A stretch of DNA of 64,000 nt, taken from Natranaerovirga hydrolytica. GTDB taxonomy: Bacteria; Bacillota; Clostridia; Lachnospirales; DSM-24629. This document shows, piece by piece, positions 1,344 through 58,690 of the stretch (the stretch's first letter is position 1; the number at the start of each line of letters is the position of its first letter). A program made the translations under genes and the position numbers. Location of the stretch: positions 136,352 to 200,351 of the forward strand of contig NZ_SMGQ01000013.1 in NCBI RefSeq assembly GCF_004339095.1, written 5' to 3'. The notes under the pieces were generated by a model. The model was not told the DNA's origin. It saw nothing but the letters and a program-made list of their open reading frames with translations, and made no database searches.

Positions 1344-1434
1344 AGATAACAATGCATCGCCGTTAGCTTTTGCATGTGAAGACTGAAAAAGCACACCCTT
1401 TCACCAAGTGCGTCGGCGATGCGAACCGTTATAC
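1344..1434 (+). repeat. attC-like site 2
   Basis: AGATAAC-AAT-GCATCGCCG ... CGGCGATGC-GAACC-GTTATAC. The R and L boxes are perfect inverse complements. The centre is unrelated to site 1. Confidence 0.7.
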
Positions 1435-3576: not shown

Positions 3577-3693
3577 ACATAACAAGATTATTTCGGTTCG
3601 CTGACGCACATTCCTTCACTGGGTACAAGCACCGCCAAGGAGAAGGACTTTTCAGGTCTAGTTCAGGGACGTCACAAACACGAGCTGTTATCT
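3577..3693 (+). repeat. attC-like site 5
   Basis: ACATAAC-AAGATTATTTCGG ... CATTCCTTCACTGGGTACAAGCACC ... GTTCAGGGACGTC ... GTTATCT (3687-3693). Near-identical to site 1 at both ends. Confidence 0.75.
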
Positions 3694-3731: not shown

Positions 3732-4214
3732 ATGATTAAGAGTAACAAAATTATTTTTTATACAGTTATTATAAGCATCATGATGTCTTTAATTAACAAT
3801 GTATTACCATTTTTTATTACTACTTATTATTTAGATAATGTAGAGAGATTGAATGGTATACTCTTTAGTATTGAGATAATAATTGCACTAATAGGATTTG
3901 TCTGCGTTGGGATATATATAATTAAAAAAGCAACATTTTCGGATGTAAGAAATGCAACTATAGTCTTTACAATGTACATTGCTATTGCCTTCGTTTTACA
4001 ACATTTCATACAAAGATTAATAGGGTATAGCTGGTTGCTGATACTTTTGTTTTTCCCTATAAGTATGTTTACAGCATTTCCTAAAATTATTATTTGGCAA
4101 ACTAAGAGTCCAATAATATTGTTTGTAATCAGTTCGATTTTATTTCCGTGCATATTTTTTGTAATAAAAGGAATAGCGATAAGTTTCCAAAGCTGGCGCA
4201 ATAACAACAGATAA
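3732..4214 (+). CDS. hypothetical polytopic membrane protein
   Basis: 160 aa with 4-5 hydrophobic helices. Confidence 0.4.
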   Translation: MIKSNKIIFYTVIISIMMSLINNVLPFFITTYYLDNVERLNGILFSIEIIIALIGFVCVGIYIIKKATFSDVRNATIVFTMYIAIAFVLQHFIQRLIGYSWLLILLFFPISMFTAFPKIIIWQTKSPIILFVISSILFPCIFFVIKGIAISFQSWRNNNR

Positions 4215-4227
4215 AAAGTACTCCAGT

Positions 4228-4530
4228 TCGCTTTGCATGAGAGGACTGTAAAGCACATCAGAGAAGTTAAGAGATGAATACTCAAATAGCCCCTATAATA
4301 TAAGTGTTTAAGAAAACCACATCCATATATTTTTGAATTGGCTATTTTAAAAATGGGATTTAAAGCAGATGATTAATGGTTCATTGGTGACTTATTTGAG
4401 TATGATATCATTGGTGCAAATTTTGTGCACAACAGCACCTAAAAGAGTGTTCTCAACATTCATCAGCAATTTGGGTCAAGCTTTGTGAGAGCTGATGGAC
4501 GTTGGAAACACTTGGAACATTAGCTGACAG
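4228..4530 (+). repeat. degenerate attC remnant(s)
   Basis: Fragments TTCGCT...GGACTG and GGACGTTGG...ATTAGCTGACAG resemble the two halves of the site-1 family. Confidence 0.3.
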
Positions 4531-4600
4531 AAAGCACTAGTTTGTAGATTTGCTTGTATTATTAGATTTTTCTTAAGTATATAGAATAGGAGGGAGTTTA

Positions 4601-5389
4601 ATGAATAAAATAGGAGTTATATTGGATTTAGAAGGAACATTAATCAGTAACGGTGAAGCATTATTAGGTTCAATTAAGCTGCTAGAATATTTAATGGAAA
4701 AGAATATTCCTTTTAGAATAATAACAAATACAGTATCAAAATCATGTAAAGAGTTATCCTTTGCGTTTCATAATGTAGGTATTGATATACCAGAGATCTA
4801 TTTTATAAACCCCATTGTTACAGTAAAAGGATTTTTATCTAAAAACCATATAGAATCGTTTTGGTTTGTTGGCTCGAATGATACTAAGAGTCAATTAGGA
4901 ATAGATGGAAAATATAAAGAAATTCCTGAATATATAATACTGTGTGATTTCGAAAACGTTGATTGTAACTATGAATTACTTAATAGGATATTTAGTTATA
5001 TACATAAGGGTTCAAAGTTGTTAACTATGTCACAGTCAAAATACTATTTATCAAAGAGTGGTCCTAAACTGGATACAGGTGCATTCTGTAGCATGTTTGA
5101 GAATATAACAGGAATCAATTCTATCTTATTTGGAAAACCATCTGATAAAATTTATCAAGAAGCAATTAGTCAAATGAATATTGAATCGAGTAAGATTATT
5201 GCTATAGGAGACGATGTTTTAACAGATATAAAAGGGGGCAATAAAATGAGTGCATATTCAATACTTGTTAAGAGTGGGAAGTATAAAAAAGATGATGAAA
5301 CTAAAATAAAGCCAAATAAAGTGGTTGAAAATTTGCTGGAAATAATACCTTTCTTGAAAAAAATAAACAATGAAAAAGATGTACTATAA
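4601..5389 (+). CDS. HAD-superfamily (IIA-like) hydrolase
   Basis: DLEGTL nucleophile motif near the N-terminus. C-terminal GDDVLTDIKGG. Confidence 0.6.
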   Translation: MNKIGVILDLEGTLISNGEALLGSIKLLEYLMEKNIPFRIITNTVSKSCKELSFAFHNVGIDIPEIYFINPIVTVKGFLSKNHIESFWFVGSNDTKSQLGIDGKYKEIPEYIILCDFENVDCNYELLNRIFSYIHKGSKLLTMSQSKYYLSKSGPKLDTGAFCSMFENITGINSILFGKPSDKIYQEAISQMNIESSKIIAIGDDVLTDIKGGNKMSAYSILVKSGKYKKDDETKIKPNKVVENLLEIIPFLKKINNEKDVL

Positions 5390-6491: not shown

Positions 6492-7130
6492 TTGGATTTG
6501 AAAATATTAGTTGGACAGCCTAAAAGAACAGAAGATTTATTTGAGTTAGAAAATGCTCTTAAAAAATATAAATGTAATTATGTACTCTTTCCTGAGGGCT
6601 ATATTAGTAATGAGTCATTGTTAGTAGAAGCTTGTGAACTCTCAAAAAAGTATAGGGTACCTATATTGTCAAGTTATTTATCAGACAAAGATCAAAGAGA
6701 TAGAGCTTGTGTGATAGATGAATTTGGAAAAATAGTTTTGAGAAGAAAAAAATCCTTAGTTGAAGGTCCACTGTTAAGTCCATCTAAGGCACTAGTAAAT
6801 AACACCCATATTGGATATCTTTTATGTTGTGAAATATTTTTAGAATATGAGAACTTGAATGGTGTACATATGCTTTTTAATCCAATTGGCGTTGGAATGT
6901 TTAGTGAAGAGCAGTTTGCGGAGTGGTCAGAAAGGGCAAAAAAGATAGCAATAGACTTAAAGTGTATAGTTTTGGGAACAAGTCATGGGGATGGATCTTA
7001 TAGAAATTGTGGTACATCAATACCTATAGCGTATGTTTATAATAAAGATGGAACTGAAATTTTTCTTAGTAAAAATGATACAAGAACTGTTATTGTTGAT
7101 TTGTCTAACAAAGAAGTATCTTATATTTAG
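6492..7130 (+). CDS. carbon-nitrogen hydrolase (nitrilase-superfamily) protein
   Basis: E-K-C triad context: FPEGY, RRKKS, LLCCEIF. Confidence 0.55.
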   Translation: MDLKILVGQPKRTEDLFELENALKKYKCNYVLFPEGYISNESLLVEACELSKKYRVPILSSYLSDKDQRDRACVIDEFGKIVLRRKKSLVEGPLLSPSKALVNNTHIGYLLCCEIFLEYENLNGVHMLFNPIGVGMFSEEQFAEWSERAKKIAIDLKCIVLGTSHGDGSYRNCGTSIPIAYVYNKDGTEIFLSKNDTRTVIVDLSNKEVSYI

Positions 7131-7173
7131 TTATTTGCTAGGGTGAGTGTTTCGAAGATTATGAGTCAACATC

Positions 7174-7289
7174 TTATAACAAAATGTCTCCATTCGCTAT
7201 GCCACCCCTTTACTGAGTCCAAGTACTACCTCTGATGAAGGGCTTTGTGGGTCCAGTTTAAGAAGGTGGAGAACAACAGAAAGTTAGAT
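7174..7289 (+). repeat. attC-like site 8
   Basis: TTATAAC (7174-7180) ... CCATTCGCT ... GGTCCAGTTTAAGAAGGTGG ... GTTAGAT (7283-7289), a perfect GTTRRRY. Confidence 0.7.
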
Positions 7290-7390
7290 GACATAGACTC
7301 TTCTTATCGAGTATTATTTTAGGGTTGATAGAAGAAAACATATTGCAAGTATTATATATGCTATATAATGTATATTAGGAGGAAATAGAA

Positions 7391-7912
7391 ATGAAAACTA
7401 AAAAATTGATTATAGCGTTATCAATACTTCTTGTAGTTGTACTTTATATCGGACTTTACTCAAATGGAAATATGGGTGTTTCTAGAAACAGATTAGAAAA
7501 AGATGCTCGTAAGAGTCAAGAAATAGATGCAACTTGGTTGGTTACTAAGGATGTAACGGATAAAATGGGAGCATTATTATTTTACAATAAAGAATTAAAT
7601 CAGCACACTTTTTCGGTATATTTGAAAAGAGATGGTTTTTCATACGGATATTTTTTTGGTGAAGGCGGTTCTTTAAGCTCTAGTGGTTCAGAAGTACAAG
7701 GCTTTTCATATCAAGATAAAGGAATGGCTTTGATTTCAATGAATACGAAAAATGTTGAAGAAATTACATTGAATGATGGGCAAAATATAGAAAGAATAAA
7801 AATAAATCCACTTGAACCTTTTGCAATAATTATTCCCCACAACGTTGATGTGGTACAACTGTATGATTCAAATGGCAAGAGTATTTCGATAGATAATATT
7901 TGGGCTTATTAA
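7391..7912 (+). CDS. hypothetical N-terminally anchored or secreted protein
   Basis: 173 aa with an N-terminal TM/signal segment. Confidence 0.4.
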   Translation: MKTKKLIIALSILLVVVLYIGLYSNGNMGVSRNRLEKDARKSQEIDATWLVTKDVTDKMGALLFYNKELNQHTFSVYLKRDGFSYGYFFGEGGSLSSSGSEVQGFSYQDKGMALISMNTKNVEEITLNDGQNIERIKINPLEPFAIIIPHNVDVVQLYDSNGKSISIDNIWAY

Positions 7913-8025
7913 GCACCAAGTGCAGTTGTGCGAAGGCTTATCAATTTCATAAATCTGAGAAACATTATATGACAGATGTTGCTGGTCTAAAAGCATAGTT
8001 TAACGAACAGATTGGAGCGTATATA

Positions 8026-8924: not shown

Positions 8925-9025
8925 ACCAAACAATGTATCTCTGTTCGCTTCGCGGGGTGTAAGCACCTCTACGAAGAAGGGCTTGGCGGATACAGTTCAG
9001 AGTCGGCGGAGATATGAGGACATTA
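8925..9025 (+). repeat. attC-like site 10
   Basis: TGTTCGCTTCGCGGGGTGTAAGCACC ... GAAGGGCTTGGCGGATACAGTTCAGAGTCGGCGG. The GGTG-TAAG-CACC stem is preserved by a compensatory loop change. Confidence 0.6.
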
Positions 9026-9081
9026 TGGGAAAACTAGTACTTTGTGTTATCTAGAAAATATATTTGAGAGGAAATAATGAT

Positions 9082-9987: not shown

Positions 9988-10716
9988 ATGATTTGTAAAA
10001 GAAAGTCATTTAGAAGATTTGATGATACACTAACTTTTTCAGAAGGGGAATTACAGGATATTAATCAAGCAATAGAAAAATTAAATCCTCTTGTAGATGA
10101 CATAGAAGTAAAATATAAGGTTGTTCCAAGAGAGAAAACCACATCTAAACGTGGAGAATACTGCTTGCTTATCTATAGCGAAGAAAAAGAATATTATTTA
10201 TTAAACGTGGGTTATATGTTTGAGCAATTAGATTTATATTTGGCATCAAAGAACATAGGTGTATGTTGATATGGGATGGGAAAAGTAAATGAGCATCATT
10301 ACGAGAATTTTAAATATGTTATAATGATGGCTTTGGGAAAAGGGAAAGATAGCGACTTTAGGAAAGATTATAAAAAAAGCAAACGTAAGGAAACAAGGGA
10401 TATATGGAAAGGTGATTTGAGTCTTGAGATAGCCGATTTCATTAAATATGCTCCAAGTGCTTGCAATACTCAACCATGGCGAGTGGTTTGTGAAAATAAC
10501 ACATTGAAAATATATAGAACAACAGATGTAAAATCAATTATGCCAAAAGAAAAAGTACCTTTTTATAATTCAATAGATATGGACATTTTTCTATATTTCT
10601 TAGAGTTGGCTTTAGCTCACAATGAAATTTTATTTCAAAAAACTTTGAGTTCCGAACATGAGGGCACTAACTTAATATCTATAGCAACATATTTTTTGGA
10701 AAAAAAAGAAGAATAG
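9988..10716 (+). pseudogene. nitroreductase-family gene interrupted by in-frame TGA (10270-10272)
   Basis: ORFs 9988-10269 and 10276-10716 are in the same frame. Together they carry KRKSFRRFDD and SACNTQPWR nitroreductase motifs. They are separated only by TGA-TAT. Confidence 0.55.
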
Positions 10717-12205: not shown

Positions 12206-12499
12206 AAGTTAGGGGAAGAAAATTACCCCATCAGAATGTCTTTTTCTAATTAGTCTTGAAGAAAAGGTTTTTAAAGTATTAACTCATTTTGCTAACTTTG
12301 CCTGGAAATGTGTTTGAATAGTAAGTGAACGTAATCAGATTTGATTAAGTTATTACAATACTTAATGAAAAATAATACTCCTTTTACAATAATAGCAAAT
12401 ACAGGGACAGTTCTGCCGTGGCAGGCAGAAGAAAACTTTAAAAGCTGTGACAATTCGTGATATCAATGGCCGGTCAACGTCACATCTTTTCATTTGGTG

Positions 12500-12570
12500 G
12501 CAAAAACTGCCAAAGAGTAGTCCGCTAGAGTCCAGCTCACAGATGTCGCAAATGCGAAACTGTAGCCAAT
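12500..12570 (+). repeat. attC-like remnant
   Basis: GTCCGCTAGAGTCCAGCTCACAGATGTCGCAAATGCGAAACTGTAGCC resembles the right half of the family. Confidence 0.4.
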
Positions 12571-12595
12571 ATGCTTTATCATGGAGGAAGAAGAT

Positions 12596-13267
12596 ATGAT
12601 TTTATTTATAATGGCTTTAATAGTAATGTTAATAAATTTTGCTTATCTAAGAGTAATAGTTTATAAAAAAGTAAAAACGGAGAAGGATAAAAGAAAGAAA
12701 TTAAGGAAATTAATATTAGCTTTATGCATAGTTTATTCGGGTTTGATTTCATATTTTGTAACAGATGATATTATAGGATTTAGTGGTGTTTTTTTATTGA
12801 TCAGTTCGTATTACATCATTTGTCATATTAGCTATAATCAACCTAGTAACTTATTGAATAATTTAGTCCTAAGTCTGGGCTTTCCTTTAGTTTTCATATT
12901 ATCTATAAGATTCATAAAGTACATTCTTATGAATGTATCTTTGACAGTATTTCTCTTAATAATTCCAATCTTATTTATAGAAAAAGTAGAACATAAAGCA
13001 AATAAATTAATAAAGAATATTTGTTTAGTAATGGGTATTGGCATTATGTGGTTACTAGTGATTATCTTATATGATAATGATAATACACACAAGTTAAAGC
13101 CGGAGATAGCGGCAGAAAAGTATTTAATTAATGAACATGATATTGTTTCTGAATATACTTATTCGAGGGGTGGCATTAGGGGGAATGAGATTGAAGTCAA
13201 AGTATATAGTGAAAATAAAAGAATTACCTTAATATATAAGAATGGAAAAATAATAAGAATGAAATAG
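12596..13267 (+). CDS. hypothetical membrane protein
   Basis: About 223 aa with multiple TM helices. RBS GGAGGAAG before ATG 12596. Confidence 0.4.
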   Translation: MILFIMALIVMLINFAYLRVIVYKKVKTEKDKRKKLRKLILALCIVYSGLISYFVTDDIIGFSGVFLLISSYYIICHISYNQPSNLLNNLVLSLGFPLVFILSIRFIKYILMNVSLTVFLLIIPILFIEKVEHKANKLIKNICLVMGIGIMWLLVIILYDNDNTHKLKPEIAAEKYLINEHDIVSEYTYSRGGIRGNEIEVKVYSENKRITLIYKNGKIIRMK

Positions 13268-13496: not shown

Positions 13497-14015
13497 ATGA
13501 ATGCTTTTTGGACAGTGATACCAATTATTTTAATTAGGTATGGTCTTTTAAATGTGGTAAACAAAGAAGCACTTAAGCGTGCAAGTTTCTTTGCTCCATT
13601 AGTTGGAAAAGAAAAGATAGCATTCTGGGTTTATCAAATGACAACGGCATTTATGGTGATATATTTATTAGTACTTAAGATTAAAACTGGTTCTGAGTGG
13701 TTTTACATAGGCTTGATAGTATATGGTTTAGGACTGATTTTATATGCTGTATCGATTGTTAATTATGCTAAGCCTAAAATGAATGGAATAAATTTAAAGG
13801 GTTTATATAAAGTATCACGCAACCCTATGTACGTTGCATTTTTTATATATTTCTTAGGGTGTGTATTTTTAACGGGTTCATGGGTATTGCTTGGGATATT
13901 GATAAGTTTTCAAATATCAGTACACTGGATTATTCTTTCAGAAGAAAGATGGTGCATTAAGGAATTCGGAGAAGAATATATAAATTATATGAATAAAGTG
14001 AGACGTTATATTTGA
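13497..14015 (+). CDS. isoprenylcysteine carboxyl methyltransferase-family membrane methyltransferase
   Basis: C-terminal RNPMY...EE..L...FG.EY motif. Confidence 0.5.
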   Translation: MNAFWTVIPIILIRYGLLNVVNKEALKRASFFAPLVGKEKIAFWVYQMTTAFMVIYLLVLKIKTGSEWFYIGLIVYGLGLILYAVSIVNYAKPKMNGINLKGLYKVSRNPMYVAFFIYFLGCVFLTGSWVLLGILISFQISVHWIILSEERWCIKEFGEEYINYMNKVRRYI

Positions 14016-15418: not shown

Positions 15419-15439
15419 ACAAATCGACACAACTTATAA

Positions 15440-15526
15440 GAATATATCTCTGTGCATTACACACATTCCAGAGCCTAAGTGAATACTTCTAAGGCTCTGG
15501 AAGGCCAGAGATACAAAACGTTAGGC
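15440..15526 (+). repeat. attC-like site 15 ending in canonical core GTTAGGC
   Basis: CATTCCAGAGCCTAAG-tgaata-CTTCTAAGGCTCTGGAAGG palindrome. Then AAAAC-GTTAGGC (15520-15526). Confidence 0.6.
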
Positions 15527-15589: not shown

Positions 15590-16200
15590 ATGGTGAAGTT
15601 AATACTTGAAACGTCAAATTTAATAGATTACTTAGCAGAAGATCATAACATTGATTTTAATCATTTAGTAATTAGAGAAAAAGTTAAAGAGCTTTATCAA
15701 GAGTGTGAAAGTGACATTTCAAAAATAAAAAAGGCATATGAATTTGTTCGAGATGAGATAGCTCATTCATGGGATATAGGAAGTACACGTATTACAAAAA
15801 GAGCATCAGAGGTATTGGTTTATAAAGAAGGTATTTGCTATGCAAAGTCTAATTTGTTTGCAGCCTTATTGCGTGCAGTCAATATACCAACAGGGTTTTG
15901 TTATCAAAGACTGACTATTGGTAATGCACCTGAAACAGGCTATTGTATCCATGCCTTGAATGCAGTGTATTTATCGGAATTTCATAAATAGATTCGGTTA
16001 GATACAAGAGGCAATAAAGAAGCAATAAATGCCCAATTTTCAATTGATACAGAACAATTAGCCTTTCCTGTACGCAAATATTATGATGAAAAAGATTACA
16101 TAACAATCTATAAGAATCCAAATGAGGCAACAATGGAAACTTTAAGTAAAAATGAAAATTGTTTAGAGATGTATAAATATCATTTACCTACAGAAATTTA
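15590..16200 (+). pseudogene. transglutaminase-like cysteine peptidase gene with in-frame TAG (15989-15991)
   Basis: C (GICYAKSN) and H (YCIHALN) lie before the stop. The D (IRLDTRGN) continues in the same frame after TAG. The stop sits where related sequences often have Trp. Confidence 0.5.
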
Positions 16201-16486
16201 ACAATAGGTTGTTGGCGTCTTGTTTTGGCCTAAAAGAGTGTTGCTGACGTGGATAGGAACAAGGAAGGGTGTCCACGTGAGTAACACCCAGAACCTTATA
16301 TAAAATTCAGCTAGGCATAGTTCTTAATGGGCTATTAAAACAATAATACCAAAATGTAATTGATTTAAAAATTAAATTCTACTATTCGTGGAATGGTCTC
16401 AATATAGAAGTCAAATATAAGTAGTTTGCCAAAGAAGAAACAATTATACTATAATTTAAACATTAAACAAGAACTAGGGAGGAATT

Positions 16487-17320
16487 ATGATGGATAGCAA
16501 AAAAGTGGGAAGCTTCATATCAGAATTGAGAAAAAAGAAGAATATGACACAACAAGAATTAGGAAATAAATTAAATGTTACAAATAAAGCTGTTTCAAAA
16601 TGGGAGACCGGTGATGGATATCCGGAAATAACGACTATTCCTGCTTTAGCAGAAGTATTAGGCGTATCCACAAGCGAATTGTTAAATGGTGAAATAAAAG
16701 GTAAAGGTATGAATGATGAAAAAGAAGTAGTTAAAAAATTTAATATAAATTTAAAAATGATCAATAAGTTAAAAGAAGGTAATAACACTAATAGGATACT
16801 ATTCGTCATCACTTCAGCATTTTTAATTGGGATTTTTACATGTATGTTATGTGATTATTTAATAAACAAAGCGTTTGGATGGTCTTTATATCCATTGGGG
16901 GCATTATTAATAATATGGTTAATTATAATTCCTATTTTTAAGCTTAAAAAGCACAGAATAATTATTTCATTTACTGTATTTGCACTTTCAGTAATACCCT
17001 ATTTGTTTTTGATAGAATATATAGCCGGAGAGAAAAGGTGGGTAATGCCACTAGCTTTGCCCATAGCAATATTAAGTATTATAGCCTTATATATTGTTTT
17101 ATATCTTTTTATTTATACTCAAATTAGAAAATTATATGTTACTGCAATAAGCTTTATAATTTTTGGAGTAGGTATCAATATTGCTCTGGGGCAGATTATA
17201 GGTGAGTTTGTTAATCATCAACAGAATACGTCAACTTTTATAAACGTATTTCTATCAATTTTTATAGCTTGTATTATAGTGATGTTTGAATATAAAAGAA
17301 CAAGAAAAAGTAGTGAATAA
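16487..17320 (+). CDS. XRE-family HTH regulator fused to a membrane domain
   Basis: N-terminal HTH_XRE (QQELGNKLNVTNKAVSKWE). Four TM helices follow. Confidence 0.7.
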   Translation: MMDSKKVGSFISELRKKKNMTQQELGNKLNVTNKAVSKWETGDGYPEITTIPALAEVLGVSTSELLNGEIKGKGMNDEKEVVKKFNINLKMINKLKEGNNTNRILFVITSAFLIGIFTCMLCDYLINKAFGWSLYPLGALLIIWLIIIPIFKLKKHRIIISFTVFALSVIPYLFLIEYIAGEKRWVMPLALPIAILSIIALYIVLYLFIYTQIRKLYVTAISFIIFGVGINIALGQIIGEFVNHQQNTSTFINVFLSIFIACIIVMFEYKRTRKSSE

Positions 17321-17536: not shown

Positions 17537-18295
17537 ATGATTGAATACCTAGGAAGAGAAGTTGAGGTAAAAATAGATAGGCCATTAGGAAGTAAGCATC
17601 CAGATCACGGTTTTGTTTACCCCATTAATTATGGATTTATTGAAGGAACCAAAGCCGCAGATAATGAAGAAATTGATGCATATGTTCTTGGTATATTTGA
17701 ACCAATAAGTACTTATAGAGGGAAAGTTATAGGAATAATTAAGAGAAATAATGATGTTGAAGATAAGTTAATAGTAGCTAACGATTTAAATAGTTATGAT
17801 AAGTATCAAATAAAAGCTTTAACAGAATTTCAAGAAAGATTTTTTGATACAGAAATAATAACCTACGATTATTTAAGAAGTTCAATTCGAAATACTGTTC
17901 GGGGATTAATAAAAAAAGGCAATAAGATTCTTGTACTAGAAGAAAAGTATCAAGGAGAAAAATATTATTTTTTACCTGGTGGAGGAATTGAGTATTTAGA
18001 GAAAAGTCAAGAAGCTTTATATCGAGAAATGAAAGAGGAATTGAATGTAGATATAGTAGAGAGTCAATTAATGCACGTAATAGACAATATTTTTGAAGCA
18101 AACGGAATAAAAGCACACGAGGCTACACAAATATATGAGGTTAAAGTAAGTGGAATTGAAGAATTGAAGGATGGGGATAGAATGGATAAAGATTTAATGC
18201 CCAGTAAAATTCGGTGGATAGATATTGAAGAATTAAGAAAAGAAATTGCACCATTGTATCCGGAAGAATTGAAGGGGTTACTGTCTAGGGATTAA
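17537..18295 (+). CDS. inorganic pyrophosphatase-like domain fused to NUDIX hydrolase
   Basis: N-terminus resembles family I PPase. The C-terminus has a Nudix box GGGIEYLEKSQEALYREMKEELNV. Confidence 0.55.
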   Translation: MIEYLGREVEVKIDRPLGSKHPDHGFVYPINYGFIEGTKAADNEEIDAYVLGIFEPISTYRGKVIGIIKRNNDVEDKLIVANDLNSYDKYQIKALTEFQERFFDTEIITYDYLRSSIRNTVRGLIKKGNKILVLEEKYQGEKYYFLPGGGIEYLEKSQEALYREMKEELNVDIVESQLMHVIDNIFEANGIKAHEATQIYEVKVSGIEELKDGDRMDKDLMPSKIRWIDIEELRKEIAPLYPEELKGLLSRD

Positions 18296-18431
18296 CGGCA
18301 TACAAAGAGGGTTATCGATCTAGGCGAGAAATTGAATAAAGTGTAAAAAGGGCTGATTGGAAGGCATCACCAATGTCAATGTTAGGCAAAATAACCACAG
18401 TGTTTACAATAAGAAAAATTGGAGAGTGAGT

Positions 18432-20077: not shown

Positions 20078-20104
20078 AAACAAAAATAATTTACAACAAA
20101 CTTA

Positions 20105-20210
20105 TTCTCGTTTGGTGACGCAATTCCTTCATTAGGTGGAAGCACCCCTAAGAAAAAGGACTACGGGGGTCCATTTTAGTAAGTTGGGAATAACAAAACG
20201 CTGGTGGATT
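20105..20210 (+). repeat. attC-like site 17
   Basis: TTCTCGTTTGGTGACGCAATTCCTTCATTAGGTGGAAGCACC ... GGGTCCATTTTAGTAAGTTGGGAATAACAAAACG. Confidence 0.6.
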
Positions 20211-21057: not shown

Positions 21058-21636
21058 TTGATGAAGAAATTAATGTTTTTAATGCTAATTATAGTATTTA
21101 TATTTGTAGGATGTAGTAAAGAAGAGGGCGTTGTGACATCAAGTAAACTTTTTCAAGGTGATGCTAGAAGGCTAGAACCCCATTTAGATATGATTACAGG
21201 CTGTGTAGAGGTCAAGTATAAAGGTGATAAGCAAAATTTAAGTCTTAAATATGAAATATGGGAGGATGGACAACTAAAAGAATCTCAAGATTCACTATCA
21301 GTGTCTATTAACGATAATCAATTTGATGGAGAAGTAAGTCTTTCTTTAAAAGAGAACATGGATACGAATTTAGAAAAAATAGATTCTATGAAACTGAAAC
21401 TGGTTATTAGTGATAGCACTGGGTACAGATCTACAAACTTCACTATAGAAAGTTTTGATCCAAGTTTTGGTTTTGGGCCTGTTGAACTCTATGAAGCAGT
21501 CAAAATAAAGGATAATGAAGAGGTTGCTGTCTGGGGATTAACGGCATACAAAGATGTTTATCAATCTGGACGAGAAATTGAAGAAAGTGTAAAAAAGGCC
21601 GATTGGGGATTTATTCTTAAAGTATATTTTGATTAG
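21058..21636 (+). CDS. hypothetical lipoprotein
   Basis: Lipobox FVGC. 192 aa. Confidence 0.45.
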   Translation: MMKKLMFLMLIIVFIFVGCSKEEGVVTSSKLFQGDARRLEPHLDMITGCVEVKYKGDKQNLSLKYEIWEDGQLKESQDSLSVSINDNQFDGEVSLSLKENMDTNLEKIDSMKLKLVISDSTGYRSTNFTIESFDPSFGFGPVELYEAVKIKDNEEVAVWGLTAYKDVYQSGREIEESVKKADWGFILKVYFD

Positions 21637-35804: not shown

Positions 35805-36659
35805 ATGAAAGTGATAGACGCACATCTTCATTTTTCTAATAGAGAAGGGTTTAAAAACACAGCAAAAGAAATTGGCCAAGTGGATTACAGTGCAACTGGA
35901 TTAAAAAAATCATTTCAATCAGCTAATATTGTTGCAGGTGTCATAATGGGAACACCAAGTAGAGAAACCAATCAAGTTTATGGTTACCCAGATGAATTTA
36001 TATATGAAGATGGAACATTAGACTGTTTGTTTTCATGTGTAGGTGTTAATTCAGAAAGGTTAATTGAAGATGCTGAAACGGAACTGTTTTATATAGAAGA
36101 AGAACTTAAAAAAGATAAAGTAGTGGGCATAAAAATTTATGCAGGATATTTTCATTATTATGCTTATGATCCAATATATACACCGGTTTATGAATTAGCA
36201 AAAAAATACAATATTCCAGTTGCCATACATTGTGGGGATACCCAATCACCCAGCGGGCTTTTGAAATACGCCCATCCTTTAACCATAGATGAACTGGCTG
36301 TCAACTATTCAGATATTAACTTTATTATATGCCATATAGGTTCGCCTTGGGCTTTAGATGCGGCAGAGGTAATTGCTAAAAATAACAACGTGTATACCGA
36401 TTTATCAGGATTATTGGCAGGTAATGAAAAAGAAGTTAGAAGGATGAAATCAGTAAGATTATTTAGAGAGCATTATCAAAAAGCACTGATCTTTGCAAAT
36501 AGTTATGATAAGGTTTTGTTTGGAACAGATTGGCCTCTTGTGCCCATACAACCTTATGTTGAGTTTGTTCAAAGTCTTATTCCTAAAGAATATTATGAAC
36601 AAGTGTTTTATAAAAATGCTTTAGAGGTGTATTCAAGAATGAAAAAATATATTGATTGA
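35805..36659 (+). CDS. amidohydrolase-family metal-dependent hydrolase
   Basis: N-terminal IDAHLHF metal-binding motif. Confidence 0.6.
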   Translation: MKVIDAHLHFSNREGFKNTAKEIGQVDYSATGLKKSFQSANIVAGVIMGTPSRETNQVYGYPDEFIYEDGTLDCLFSCVGVNSERLIEDAETELFYIEEELKKDKVVGIKIYAGYFHYYAYDPIYTPVYELAKKYNIPVAIHCGDTQSPSGLLKYAHPLTIDELAVNYSDINFIICHIGSPWALDAAEVIAKNNNVYTDLSGLLAGNEKEVRRMKSVRLFREHYQKALIFANSYDKVLFGTDWPLVPIQPYVEFVQSLIPKEYYEQVFYKNALEVYSRMKKYID

Positions 36660-36693
36660 CCTTATGCCTCTTACTAAGGTAAGAGACATAAGA
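36660..36693. repeat. long hairpin CTTATGCCTCTTAC-N4-GTAAGAGACATAAG (family B copy)
   Basis: Inverted repeat with 14-bp arms. Paralogous copies at 48316 and 58587. Confidence 0.55.
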
Positions 36694-48283: not shown

Positions 48284-48315
48284 AAAAATAGTATGATTTT
48301 CAGCGAAACGGGTGT

Positions 48316-48340
48316 CTCTTACGTTAGTAAGAGGCATCAG
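48316..48340. repeat. hairpin family B copy (CTCTTAC-GTTA-GTAAGAG)
   Basis: Perfect 7-8 bp inverted repeat sharing the arm sequence with 36660 and 58587. Confidence 0.5.
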
Positions 48341-48349
48341 TTGAGTTAA

Positions 48350-48404
48350 ATATGAAAGCCCAATCTGCAAACTTGCTAGCAAGGATTTGGAGATTGGGCT
48401 TTTG
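48350..48404 (+). repeat. hairpin family A copy 1: variable stem enclosing conserved loop GCAAACTTGCTAGCAAGGATTTGG, then T-tract
   Basis: Stem GCCCAATCT/AGATTGGGC. Preceded by AATATGAAAG. Followed by TTTTG, so it probably terminates the permease gene. Confidence 0.65.
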
Positions 48405-48740
48405 TTGATATGAATCAAGTCTATTTTATGCTCTTTATTATCCTATAATTGGGCTCAGAGAGTAAAGATAGCTTGGTTTTTAAAAAAATAAAAGGCATTT
48501 ACCAACAGAGTCTTTACAGTTAAATTGTATAAATGCTAAAATACTTATGAGAAAACTTTTTTGAAATAATGATGTAGAAAAAATCAGGCCATCAATTGAG
48601 TGAAATTTATTAAAAAAAGATAAGAAGATTTATAACCATAAAAAGGATTTATGTAAAAGAAGAAAGAAAAGGGCCATTAAATCTTTTGATATTAACCTGC
48701 CCCATGTAGCTCCAAACCCAGTAGCTACACAGGTTATCAA

Positions 48741-58523: not shown

Positions 58524-58582
58524 ATAATATGAAAATGTAATTTGCAAACTTGCTGGCAAGGATTTGGAAATTACATTTTCAG
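58524..58582 (+). repeat. hairpin family A copy 3
   Basis: Stem GAAAATGTAATTT/AAATTACATTTTC (13 bp). Loop GCAAACTTGCTGGCAAGGATTTGG. Confidence 0.65.
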
Positions 58583-58586
58583 CAAA

Positions 58587-58620
58587 CCTTATGCCTCTTA
58601 CGTCAGTAAGAGGCATAAGG
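58587..58620. repeat. hairpin family B copy (perfect 15-bp arms CCTTATGCCTCTTAC-GTCA-GTAAGAGGCATAAGG)
   Basis: Perfect inverted repeat. Confidence 0.6.
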
Positions 58621-58625
58621 TGAGA

Positions 58626-58690
58626 TAATATGAAAGTACTAATTTGCAAACTTGCTGGCAAGGATTTGAAATTAATGCTTTTATTGAAAT
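58626..58690 (+). repeat. hairpin family A copy 4
   Basis: Stem GTACTAATTT/AAATTAATGC (imperfect). Loop GCAAACTTGCTGGCAAGGATTTG. Confidence 0.55.

Follow-up and report, generated by a model that had tools for sequence, protein, structure and literature searches.

The attC sites of class 1 integrons and of Vibrio (the Vibrio cholerae repeats, VCRs) are imperfect palindromes in which the boxes R'' and L'' face L' and R' across a variable centre, and the boundaries of the gene cassettes lie inside the R' box (PMC8946536). The I2 insertion of the integron integrase, IntI, is held to be needed for the recombination of attC as a single strand, and its evolutionary intermediates are described as not known (PMC7790495); an integron-like subgroup of tyrosine recombinases was also described in which the IntI insertion is "not fully conserved" (PMC8138268). 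In the Firmicutes, the 2016 IntegronFinder survey of Cury found no complete integron and a few clusters of attC sites lacking integron-integrases (CALINs) (PMC4889954), the 2022 survey of Néron found one complete integron (Limnochorda) plus a few CALINs (PMC9024848), and both called the reason for this near-absence unclear. We describe here a short site, named site 2, at positions 1344-1434 on the + strand of a 64,000-nt stretch of the genome of Natranaerovirga hydrolytica, a member of the Lachnospirales in the Clostridia (the whole analysed stretch is called the window). An earlier note on this DNA had taken it for a second type of attC site. We read it, with a probability of roughly 0.8, as the cassette recombination site, equivalent to attC, of a clostridial integron-like element. 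By integron-like we mean a system that would work as integrons do; as it has neither the I2 insertion nor extrahelical bases, it was not filed as a canonical member.

By direct reading, site 2 is 91 nt long, within the range of roughly 57-141 nt of attC sites, and has the layout AGATAAC-AAT-GCATCGCCG-(51 nt)-CGGCGATGC-GAACC-GTTATAC. The 5' half is made of R'' (AGATAAC, 1344-1350), the spacer AAT (1351-1353) and L'' (GCATCGCCG, 1354-1362); after the centre (1363-1413) come L' (CGGCGATGC, 1414-1422), the spacer GAACC (1423-1427) and R' (GTTATAC, 1428-1434). The boxes and architecture agree with those first described, except that the centre, given as 46 nt, reads 51 nt. R'' and R' pair over 5 bp with exact AAC and GTT, positions 2-3 of R'' being purines where the consensus RYYYAAC has pyrimidines. 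The two L boxes form a perfect stem of 9 bp with no bulge, and the spacers, of 3 nt versus 5 nt, are unable to pair. The site lies 57 nt from the end of the upstream gene, a frameshifted ParE-family toxin gene (999-1287).

Folding of site 2 as single-stranded DNA gave the L stem as predicted, and both strands beat 200 of 200 shuffles (z of -3.1 and -3.5). A grammar restricted to the boxes, learned from other genomes and ignoring the centre (TAAC-AA, an L stem of 8 bp or more without mismatch, C-GTTA and the observed spacer pairs), matched the window at 618-735 and 1344-1434 alone and gave no match in 300 dinucleotide shuffles. We then used a covariance model, R1, of 121 positions and 23 pairs (R stem, L stem and one distal stem), trained on 54 sites from other genomes and metagenomes that had been picked for perfect stems, with zero window sequences among them. 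With the filters off, site 2 was the best match in the window, with 59.2 bits and an E-value of 3.3e-11 over model positions 1-121 of 121, its ends falling exactly at 1344-1434. This score is level with that of site 1 (618-735, + strand; 58.2 bits, E 5.6e-11), the best-kept copy of the dominant repeat family. All the R1 matches with E<0.2 in the window are on the + strand, follow + strand open reading frames (ORFs) and lie inside the first 21 kb; beyond 21 kb no match with E<1 was found, a result which covers 39 kb outside the array (25-64 kb). The earlier note had considered that its finding would fail if site 2 scored as background, with scores for the homogeneous family only, and that family occurred genome-wide outside arrays. 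The observations go the other way: site 2 ranks first, and no sites were found in the remainder of the window or in the upstream flanks described below.

Sequences related to both subfamilies were also searched for in other genomes, as had been proposed. The 21-nt core of the dominant repeat is present at 11 loci of species-representative genomes, ten from Clostridia (Schnuerera, Clostridium magnum, Anaerovirgula, Alkaliphilus hydrothermalis, Natronincolaceae, Tissierellales, Sporosalibacterium and Serpentinicella) and one from a Fusobacteriales metagenome-assembled genome, with outer boxes of textbook form (GCCTAAC/ACCTAAC...GTTAGGT). A degenerate pattern derived from the centre of site 2 retrieved 25 metagenome contigs. 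Their copies read RYYTAAC-AAA, followed by ATACTCCAG or ATGTTCAAG, TTCGCTTTGCATGAGAAGACTGCAAAGCACA, a variable hairpin, CTGGAGTAC or CTTGAACAA, and GAAAC-GTTRRRY, and include the canonical boxes GCCTAAC...GTTAGGT. The L boxes of site 2 are wholly unlike those of these relatives, and their complementarity is still perfect.

This conservation of pairing was quantified in 19 sites picked by their centre motif alone, pairing not being a criterion. Their L helix is 88% paired, with both sides changed in seven of the nine pairs, and pairing falls to 27-37% when the partner is slid by 1-3 columns; the covariation score was reached by none of 500 shuffles. L'' and L' lie 50-150 nt apart and come in at least 15 different versions, all kept complementary. 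Since the L boxes vary freely and remain complementary over such a distance, L'' would pair with L', and the substrate would be a folded strand or a cruciform.

The centres of sites 1 and 2 align locally no better than shuffles (p=0.55), so that the description of the centre of site 2 as unrelated to the dominant one holds for this pair; it is too strong at the level of the family. The alignment of 54 non-window sites (A3) exhibits a common skeleton, NNYTAAC-AA, L'', TTCGCT, CACAYYCCTTC, ACGTC, L' and GRAAC-GTTAKNN, in which optional hairpin modules enter at two fixed places, and the presence or absence of these modules sets the lengths of the relatives from 76 to 178 nt. In site 2 an extra hairpin, module 1 (TTTGCATG..CAAAG), is present and module 2 is truncated, so that the distal hairpin is shorter; the dominant sites of the window are without module 1, and copies on two contigs (L030 and L031) join the modules of site 2 to parts like those of the dominant type. 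Judged from these alignments, site 2 and the dominant type belong to one modular clostridial superfamily whose subfamilies are mosaics of common modules. Subfamilies are mixed in all the related arrays, so the heterogeneity of the window needs no separate origin, and the several source pools proposed at first, although plausible, are not required. Mixed attC types inside one array are also ordinary for integrons.

The sites belong to an array that occupies about the first 21 kb of the window (1-21000, + strand), as delimited from the ORF list, Pfam matches, the 3' end of a further site seen just left of the window in contig L001, accession order and a contig of the Logan assembly (L046). Small + strand ORFs, unrelated to one another, follow in a row through this region of 31% G+C; Phd/ParE, Fic, GNAT, HAD, methyltransferase, NUDIX and membrane proteins are among their products, and after most of them stands a repeat of about 120 nt in constant orientation. 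The same one-strand polarity of sites after ORFs holds in at least 20 related loci.

A recombinase is linked to these arrays. Metagenome contig L036 encodes a 348-aa tyrosine recombinase, and past this gene come six R1 sites on its strand, every one of them after a small ORF. Homologues of the protein, about 350 aa long, make up a large family in Clostridia, named "site-specific tyrosine recombinase/integron integrase" at NCBI. Five further contexts were analysed, from Clostridium sp. OS1-26 (complete genome), Ca. Clostridium radicumherbarum, an ENA/NCBI contig of 2.4 Mb, a JGI contig and Orenia marismortui, and all have the same layout, in which the recombinase comes after housekeeping genes and before a unidirectional series of small accessory genes. 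The recombinase is transcribed in the direction of the cassettes in all six loci. Five of the six (L036, L039, L041, L043 and L044) contain R1 sites, 29 in total; each lies downstream of the recombinase gene, on the strand that encodes it, and none with E<=0.01 was found in the 10 kb upstream at the four loci with such a flank (L039, L041, L043 and L044). The sixth, that of O. marismortui (L045, 11045-15977), combines a family recombinase and a cassette-like array (GNAT, MazG, SEC-C) with zero R1 matches. This array may use another type of site, and further site families are probable in hosts that are more distant.

The member of this family in N. hydrolytica, TCK92654.1, is encoded on the same contig as the window, four accession numbers before its first gene and with three coding sequences between, the window proteins running from TCK92658.1 (first gene) to TCK92705.1 (HydG). 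This contig measures 433,204 nt, and the window's HydG has 100% identity with that of N. hydrolytica. The window would thus hold the cassettes from about number 2-4 on of an array headed by TCK92654.1, the adjacency being deduced from accession order and not from DNA. The 10 kb upstream of this recombinase gene (contig L046) contain housekeeping genes and no R1 site with E<=0.01. The TCK92654.1 ORF is full length, and its catalytic R, K, HxxR, H and Y align to those of IntI1. The closest solved structure to the family is VchIntIA, by sequence (E 1.6e-40) as well as by fold (PDB 2a3v); the identity with IntI1 is 31-34%, the C-terminal SPLD motif is in common and a PF13495 N-terminal SAM-like domain is present. 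The alignment skips residues 182-239 of VchIntIA, and the about 41 residues of IntI1 missing there correspond to the IntI-specific I2 region. In the same way, the integron integrase model TIGR02249 matches in two pieces with 211 bits, below its cut-off of 265. The N-terminal 65-75 residues or so form a confidently predicted beta/alpha domain with no Pfam match, and a fold search with the recombinase model returned recombinase cores alone and nothing for this domain. In C. magnum (L003), where a lone site occurs, an Xer-like gene at a distance of 4 kb from it was considered as an integrase candidate and rejected; it has neither the N-terminal domain of the family nor the SPLD end, the intervening genes are without sites, and the proximity was treated as coincidental.

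Just behind the recombinase, about 100-200 nt after its stop codon are conserved among loci, with CGACAT-type repeats and an AGTTAK end, after which TGACA-like cassette starts are found. This attI-like region includes the inverted repeat CCCGAC..GTCGGG and, besides it, a second CGACAT. The AGTTAK end is seen in five loci, and the core in N. hydrolytica is AGATAG. The regions are located at 11072-11159 of L046, at 1262-1460 of L036 and just after 11060 in L039, L041, L043 and L044. Contig L046 stops 88 nt past the recombinase stop codon, inside the attI-like region.

The position of the crossover was given by the array of Ca. Clostridium radicumherbarum (L041), where an 881-nt unit made of a GNAT gene and its site is present twice, at 12217-13103 and 15638-16524. 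Identity between the copies is 100% over 887 nt. On the right side they diverge at the first base after GTTA; on the left side the sites that precede them belong to one subfamily but differ at 13 positions. The duplicate is therefore bounded at both ends within the invariant ACGTTA of R'. Among the comparative data these boundaries argue most strongly for crossover at the sites, with an ORF and its downstream site as the mobile unit, and the duplication suggests recent recombinase activity in this organism. No second copy of cassette 2, the unit that ends with site 2, was found, and the crossover evidence comes from this relative. When its boundaries are applied to the window, cassette 2 would extend from the TT of the site 1 R' box to the G of the site 2 R' box (730-1428, + strand). 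A cassette gene common to the window (13497-14015) and contig L014 was tried as another boundary marker and rejected, the homology being confined to the ORF.

By analogy with integrons, one strand of site 2 would fold, R'' pairing with R' and L'' with L', with the asymmetric unpaired spacer of 3 nt versus 5 nt between the two stems. The folded site would imitate the core site of a tyrosine recombinase, and the IntI-related recombinase from the array head, which we infer to be the catalyst, would cut it in the invariant ACGTTA of R'. Strand exchange with another such site, or with the attI-like site beside the recombinase gene, would then excise, insert or duplicate the unit TTA...ORF...site...G. 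Group II introns (RF02005) were observed inside related arrays, at 7088-7345 and 4527-4784 (- strand) of L006 with 126-129 bits, and at 7866-8000 (+ strand) of L011 with a truncated match of 69.7 bits. Those at L006 7088-7345 and in L011 begin with GTGTG or GTGCG directly after the GTTA of R' and are co-oriented with the cassettes. The known group IIC-attC introns enter the bottom strand and so run against the cassettes (PMC3001079), and the orientation seen here might bear on which strand folds in the clostridial system.

Several points weigh against the reading of site 2 as the recombination site of an integron-like element. The evidence is comparative sequence throughout, and TCK92654.1 is placed next to the window by accession order. 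The clostridial L stem is without an extrahelical base, unlike the canonical L'', which has a bulged one, and the recombinase lacks the about 41 residues of I2, which are held to be required for recombining attC as a single strand (PMC7790495). The scores of R1 on canonical attC sites are 11-15 bits, with E-values of 0.8-6, none individually significant. Finally, the array shows damage at many of its sites in the window and in several cassette genes, and its attI-like core has AGATAG in place of AGTTAG.

This last point leads to the alternative that survives best, in which the N. hydrolytica array is a fossil and site 2 was well kept by chance. Perfect boxes are kept by two of the about 12 sites of the window, sites 1 and 2. 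Site 1 reads ATATAAC-AAGA-TTATTCCCA...TGGGAATAA-CAAAAC-GTTATCT, with the same anatomy as site 2 and no module 1. Many of the other sites, which are all on the + strand, are damaged. Among the dominant-subfamily copies, that at 2264-2389 has a decayed 5' arm (21.4 bits, E 0.017; alignments A1 and A2), that at 3577-3693 has mismatches in the L stem (44.5 bits, E 8.2e-8), that at 7174-7289 scores 32.4 bits (E 5e-5), that at 8926-9028 has mutated R boxes (CAAAC / CATTATG; 21.9 bits, E 0.013) and the last recognisable one, at 20091-20206, has a mutated R' (GCTGG; 18.7 bits, E 0.07; alignment A1). A partial degenerate site at 2853-2947, between a 67-aa ORF and a GNAT cassette, matches model positions 12-112 only (23.5 bits, E 0.0056). 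A decayed second copy of the site 2 subfamily at about 4209-4313 (17.3 bits, E 0.15), recognised also by a fuzzy match to the centre and by the metagenome copies, retains the centre (4231-4257) and L'' (GTACTCCAG), its 3' arm and R' being gone. A third type of centre is represented at 15434-15526, with ...ATATCTCTG, a hairpin and CAGAGATA-CAAAAC-GTTAGGC (40.2 bits, E 7.8e-7; z of -4.9 for folding as DNA).

The cassette genes exhibit a similar picture. Cassette 2 encodes a toxin-antitoxin module composed of a 59-aa antitoxin-like ORF (823-1002) and the ParE-family toxin (999-1287), which is frameshifted at an A-run (1124-1129) and whose repaired version matches PF05016 at 3e-18; beside the toxin, GenBank has a numbered protein only for the antitoxin-like ORF. 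A nitroreductase-like gene and a transglutaminase-like gene (9988-10716 and 15590-16198) each appear split into two ORFs, which is consistent with the decay of silent cassettes. Moreover, a 91-nt stretch at the 3' end (21516-21606) of a lipoprotein-like gene (21058-21636) recurs with 88% identity, as noncoding DNA, after the NUDIX gene at 18270-18360, and this fragment is what remains of a cassette that was lost or rearranged. On the other side, the recombinase has a full-length ORF in which the catalytic residues align to those of IntI1, and sites 1 and 2, next to each other, are both intact. In the Logan assembly, made from the same strain, the contigs end at the repeats, and it is uninformative on activity. 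We consider that the array looks partly fossil and that the present-day activity of site 2 is uncertain; that the array is a relic is less probable than not, and this alternative would concern present activity only, leaving the identity of site 2 undisputed.

A second alternative is a reaction on duplex DNA, as for Xer at dif or pdif, in which the R'-L' half would be a double-stranded core site with an incidental hairpin potential. The recombinase has an Xer-like architecture without I2, as in the Xer/dif modules (pdif, and integrative mobile elements exploiting Xer, IMEX), and the XerA_Arch model gives 217.7 bits against a cut-off of 220. The I2 insertion is in addition regarded as an adaptation to folded single-strand substrates (PMC7790495). 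The constant complementarity of L boxes so far apart is, however, expected only if they pair together. Unlike the 28-bp dif-like sites, the clostridial sites are long, covarying imperfect palindromes, repeated in direct orientation behind every cassette, and the array has a recombinase gene of its own linked to it. The duplex reaction thus appears improbable, and the folded substrate of an integron-like element is preferred.

Slightly less probable again is that site 2 is a canonical attC, recombined as a folded bottom strand by an IntI with I2 in an ordinary sedentary chromosomal integron. The likeness with class 1 attC sites and the VCRs is extensive. Both have the palindrome R''-spacer-L''...L'-spacer-R' with AAC/GTT cores, AAC-AA at the 5' end and C-GTTAG (in both systems C-GTTA is conserved) at the 3' end, L boxes conserved in their pairing and not in their sequence, a variable distal hairpin, and one site per mostly promoterless ORF in a single orientation, the box order and polarity to the ORFs being the same; the cassette boundaries lie in R', as seen for the clostridial sites in the L041 duplicate and for integrons in a crossover between G and TT. 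The comparison was made with six class 1 integron regions containing about eight attC sites. On 90 kb of class 1 integron plasmids, the top three R1 matches are the attC sites of the aadA1, blaVIM-1 and flavodoxin cassettes, with the right ends and on the cassette sense strand. The recombinase gene likewise stands at the array head beside an attI-like region, as do those of IntI1 and VchIntIA, and shares with VchIntIA, its best solved relative, the SPLD motif.

The differences are of several kinds. The aadA1 attC reads GTCTAAC-AATTC-GTTCAAGCC...GGCTTAAC-TCAAGC-GTTAGAT, with an extra C in L'', whereas the L stems of site 2 and of its 54 relatives are perfect, and the L helix computed from these relatives with RNAalifold has no extrahelical base (the sites having been chosen for perfect stems). 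The spacers are of 3-4 versus 5-7 nt in the clostridial sites and of 5 versus 6 nt in the aadA1, VIM-1 and flavodoxin attC sites, the clostridial asymmetry sitting in the internal loop. The internal modules TTCGCT, CACAYYCCTTC and ACGTC, conserved across genera, are a clostridial feature. The recombinases at the head of the N. hydrolytica array and of five related ones are without the IntI-specific insertion, as already indicated by the TIGR02249 score, and no canonical IntI was found in any of the fetched loci. The N-terminal domain of about 75 aa is a further difference from IntI1 and VchIntIA. Unlike that of IntI1 or VchIntIA, the clostridial recombinase gene reads in the same way as the cassettes; this co-directional arrangement is a minority one among known integrons (e.g. 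Treponema). The clostridial arrays would be reported by IntegronFinder like the CALINs of Firmicutes if their sites pass its attC model, but they are headed by a conserved recombinase that would fail its intI criterion. From these sequences, the resemblance between the clostridial sites and canonical attC is real but distant. The first description of site 2 as a cassette-end site of a different type is therefore retained, and attC in the strict sense is not, given the perfect stem, the spacers of 3 versus 5 nt and the absence of I2.

That site 2 is no recombination site, and instead a terminator, a repeat of the repetitive extragenic palindrome or miniature inverted-repeat transposable element type, or a structured RNA after small genes, fits a hairpin that is GC-rich and intergenic and stands behind an ORF of an AT-rich genome, but is hardly tenable in view of the zero Rfam 15 matches at the gathering threshold in the whole window, the lack of a T-run 3' of the stem, the strict, polar link to one recombinase family, the duplication boundaries inside R' and the confinement of the matches to the array.

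Other elements were noticed in the related arrays and in the window. Two copies of an IS91-type transposase, each with a gene for a 279-aa tyrosine recombinase, are inserted in one related array (L043, 12193-14125 and 16196-18128). Defence-like cassettes occur in the Serpentinicella array (L010, 612-3931; an AAA ATPase and a second large protein) and in the JGI contig (L044, 12168-16525; Mrr_cat and AAA_13 proteins), and these anti-phage-like cassettes echo reports for Vibrio chromosomal integrons. Outside the array, a repeated hairpin (ACCTTATGCCTCTTAC..GTAAGAGGCATAAG) is present in the window at 36659-36692, 48296-48411 and 58526-58690, followed in two places by the palindromic TTGCAAACTTGCTAGCAAG; the two motifs are possibly a terminator plus operator common to nearby sugar-regulon genes.

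The interest of site 2 lies in the system that it helps to define, and not in the heterogeneity of attC types. This system is apparently undescribed and widespread. We found no literature on clostridial or Gram-positive cassette arrays with an I2-less IntI-like recombinase, in a search that left most subscription journals outside, so that an earlier description is possible. Many Clostridia appear to carry complete platforms made of the recombinase, the attI-like region and long cassette arrays, including Clostridium, Alkaliphilus, Natranaerovirga, Serpentinicella and Tissierellales together with many metagenome contigs, and current detectors would overlook these platforms or call them orphan arrays. 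A broader proposal, which we hold tentatively and at a little under even odds, is that they form an unrecognised integron lineage spread over the Clostridia, in which bulge-free attC-like hairpins are recombined by an IntI-related enzyme that either never gained I2 or lost it, and whose N-terminus bears an additional domain. If so, this lineage would represent either the missing intermediate between Xer and IntI or an independent, I2-free route to hairpin recombination, and the view of the Firmicutes as essentially integron-free would be overturned. If active, the system would offer a natural I2-less enzyme and bulge-free sites with which to probe the evolution of strand choice and hairpin recognition, and it would give the anaerobic Gram-positive bacteria a large unexplored pool of cassettes, with toxin-antitoxin, defence-like, GNAT and NUDIX genes among them.

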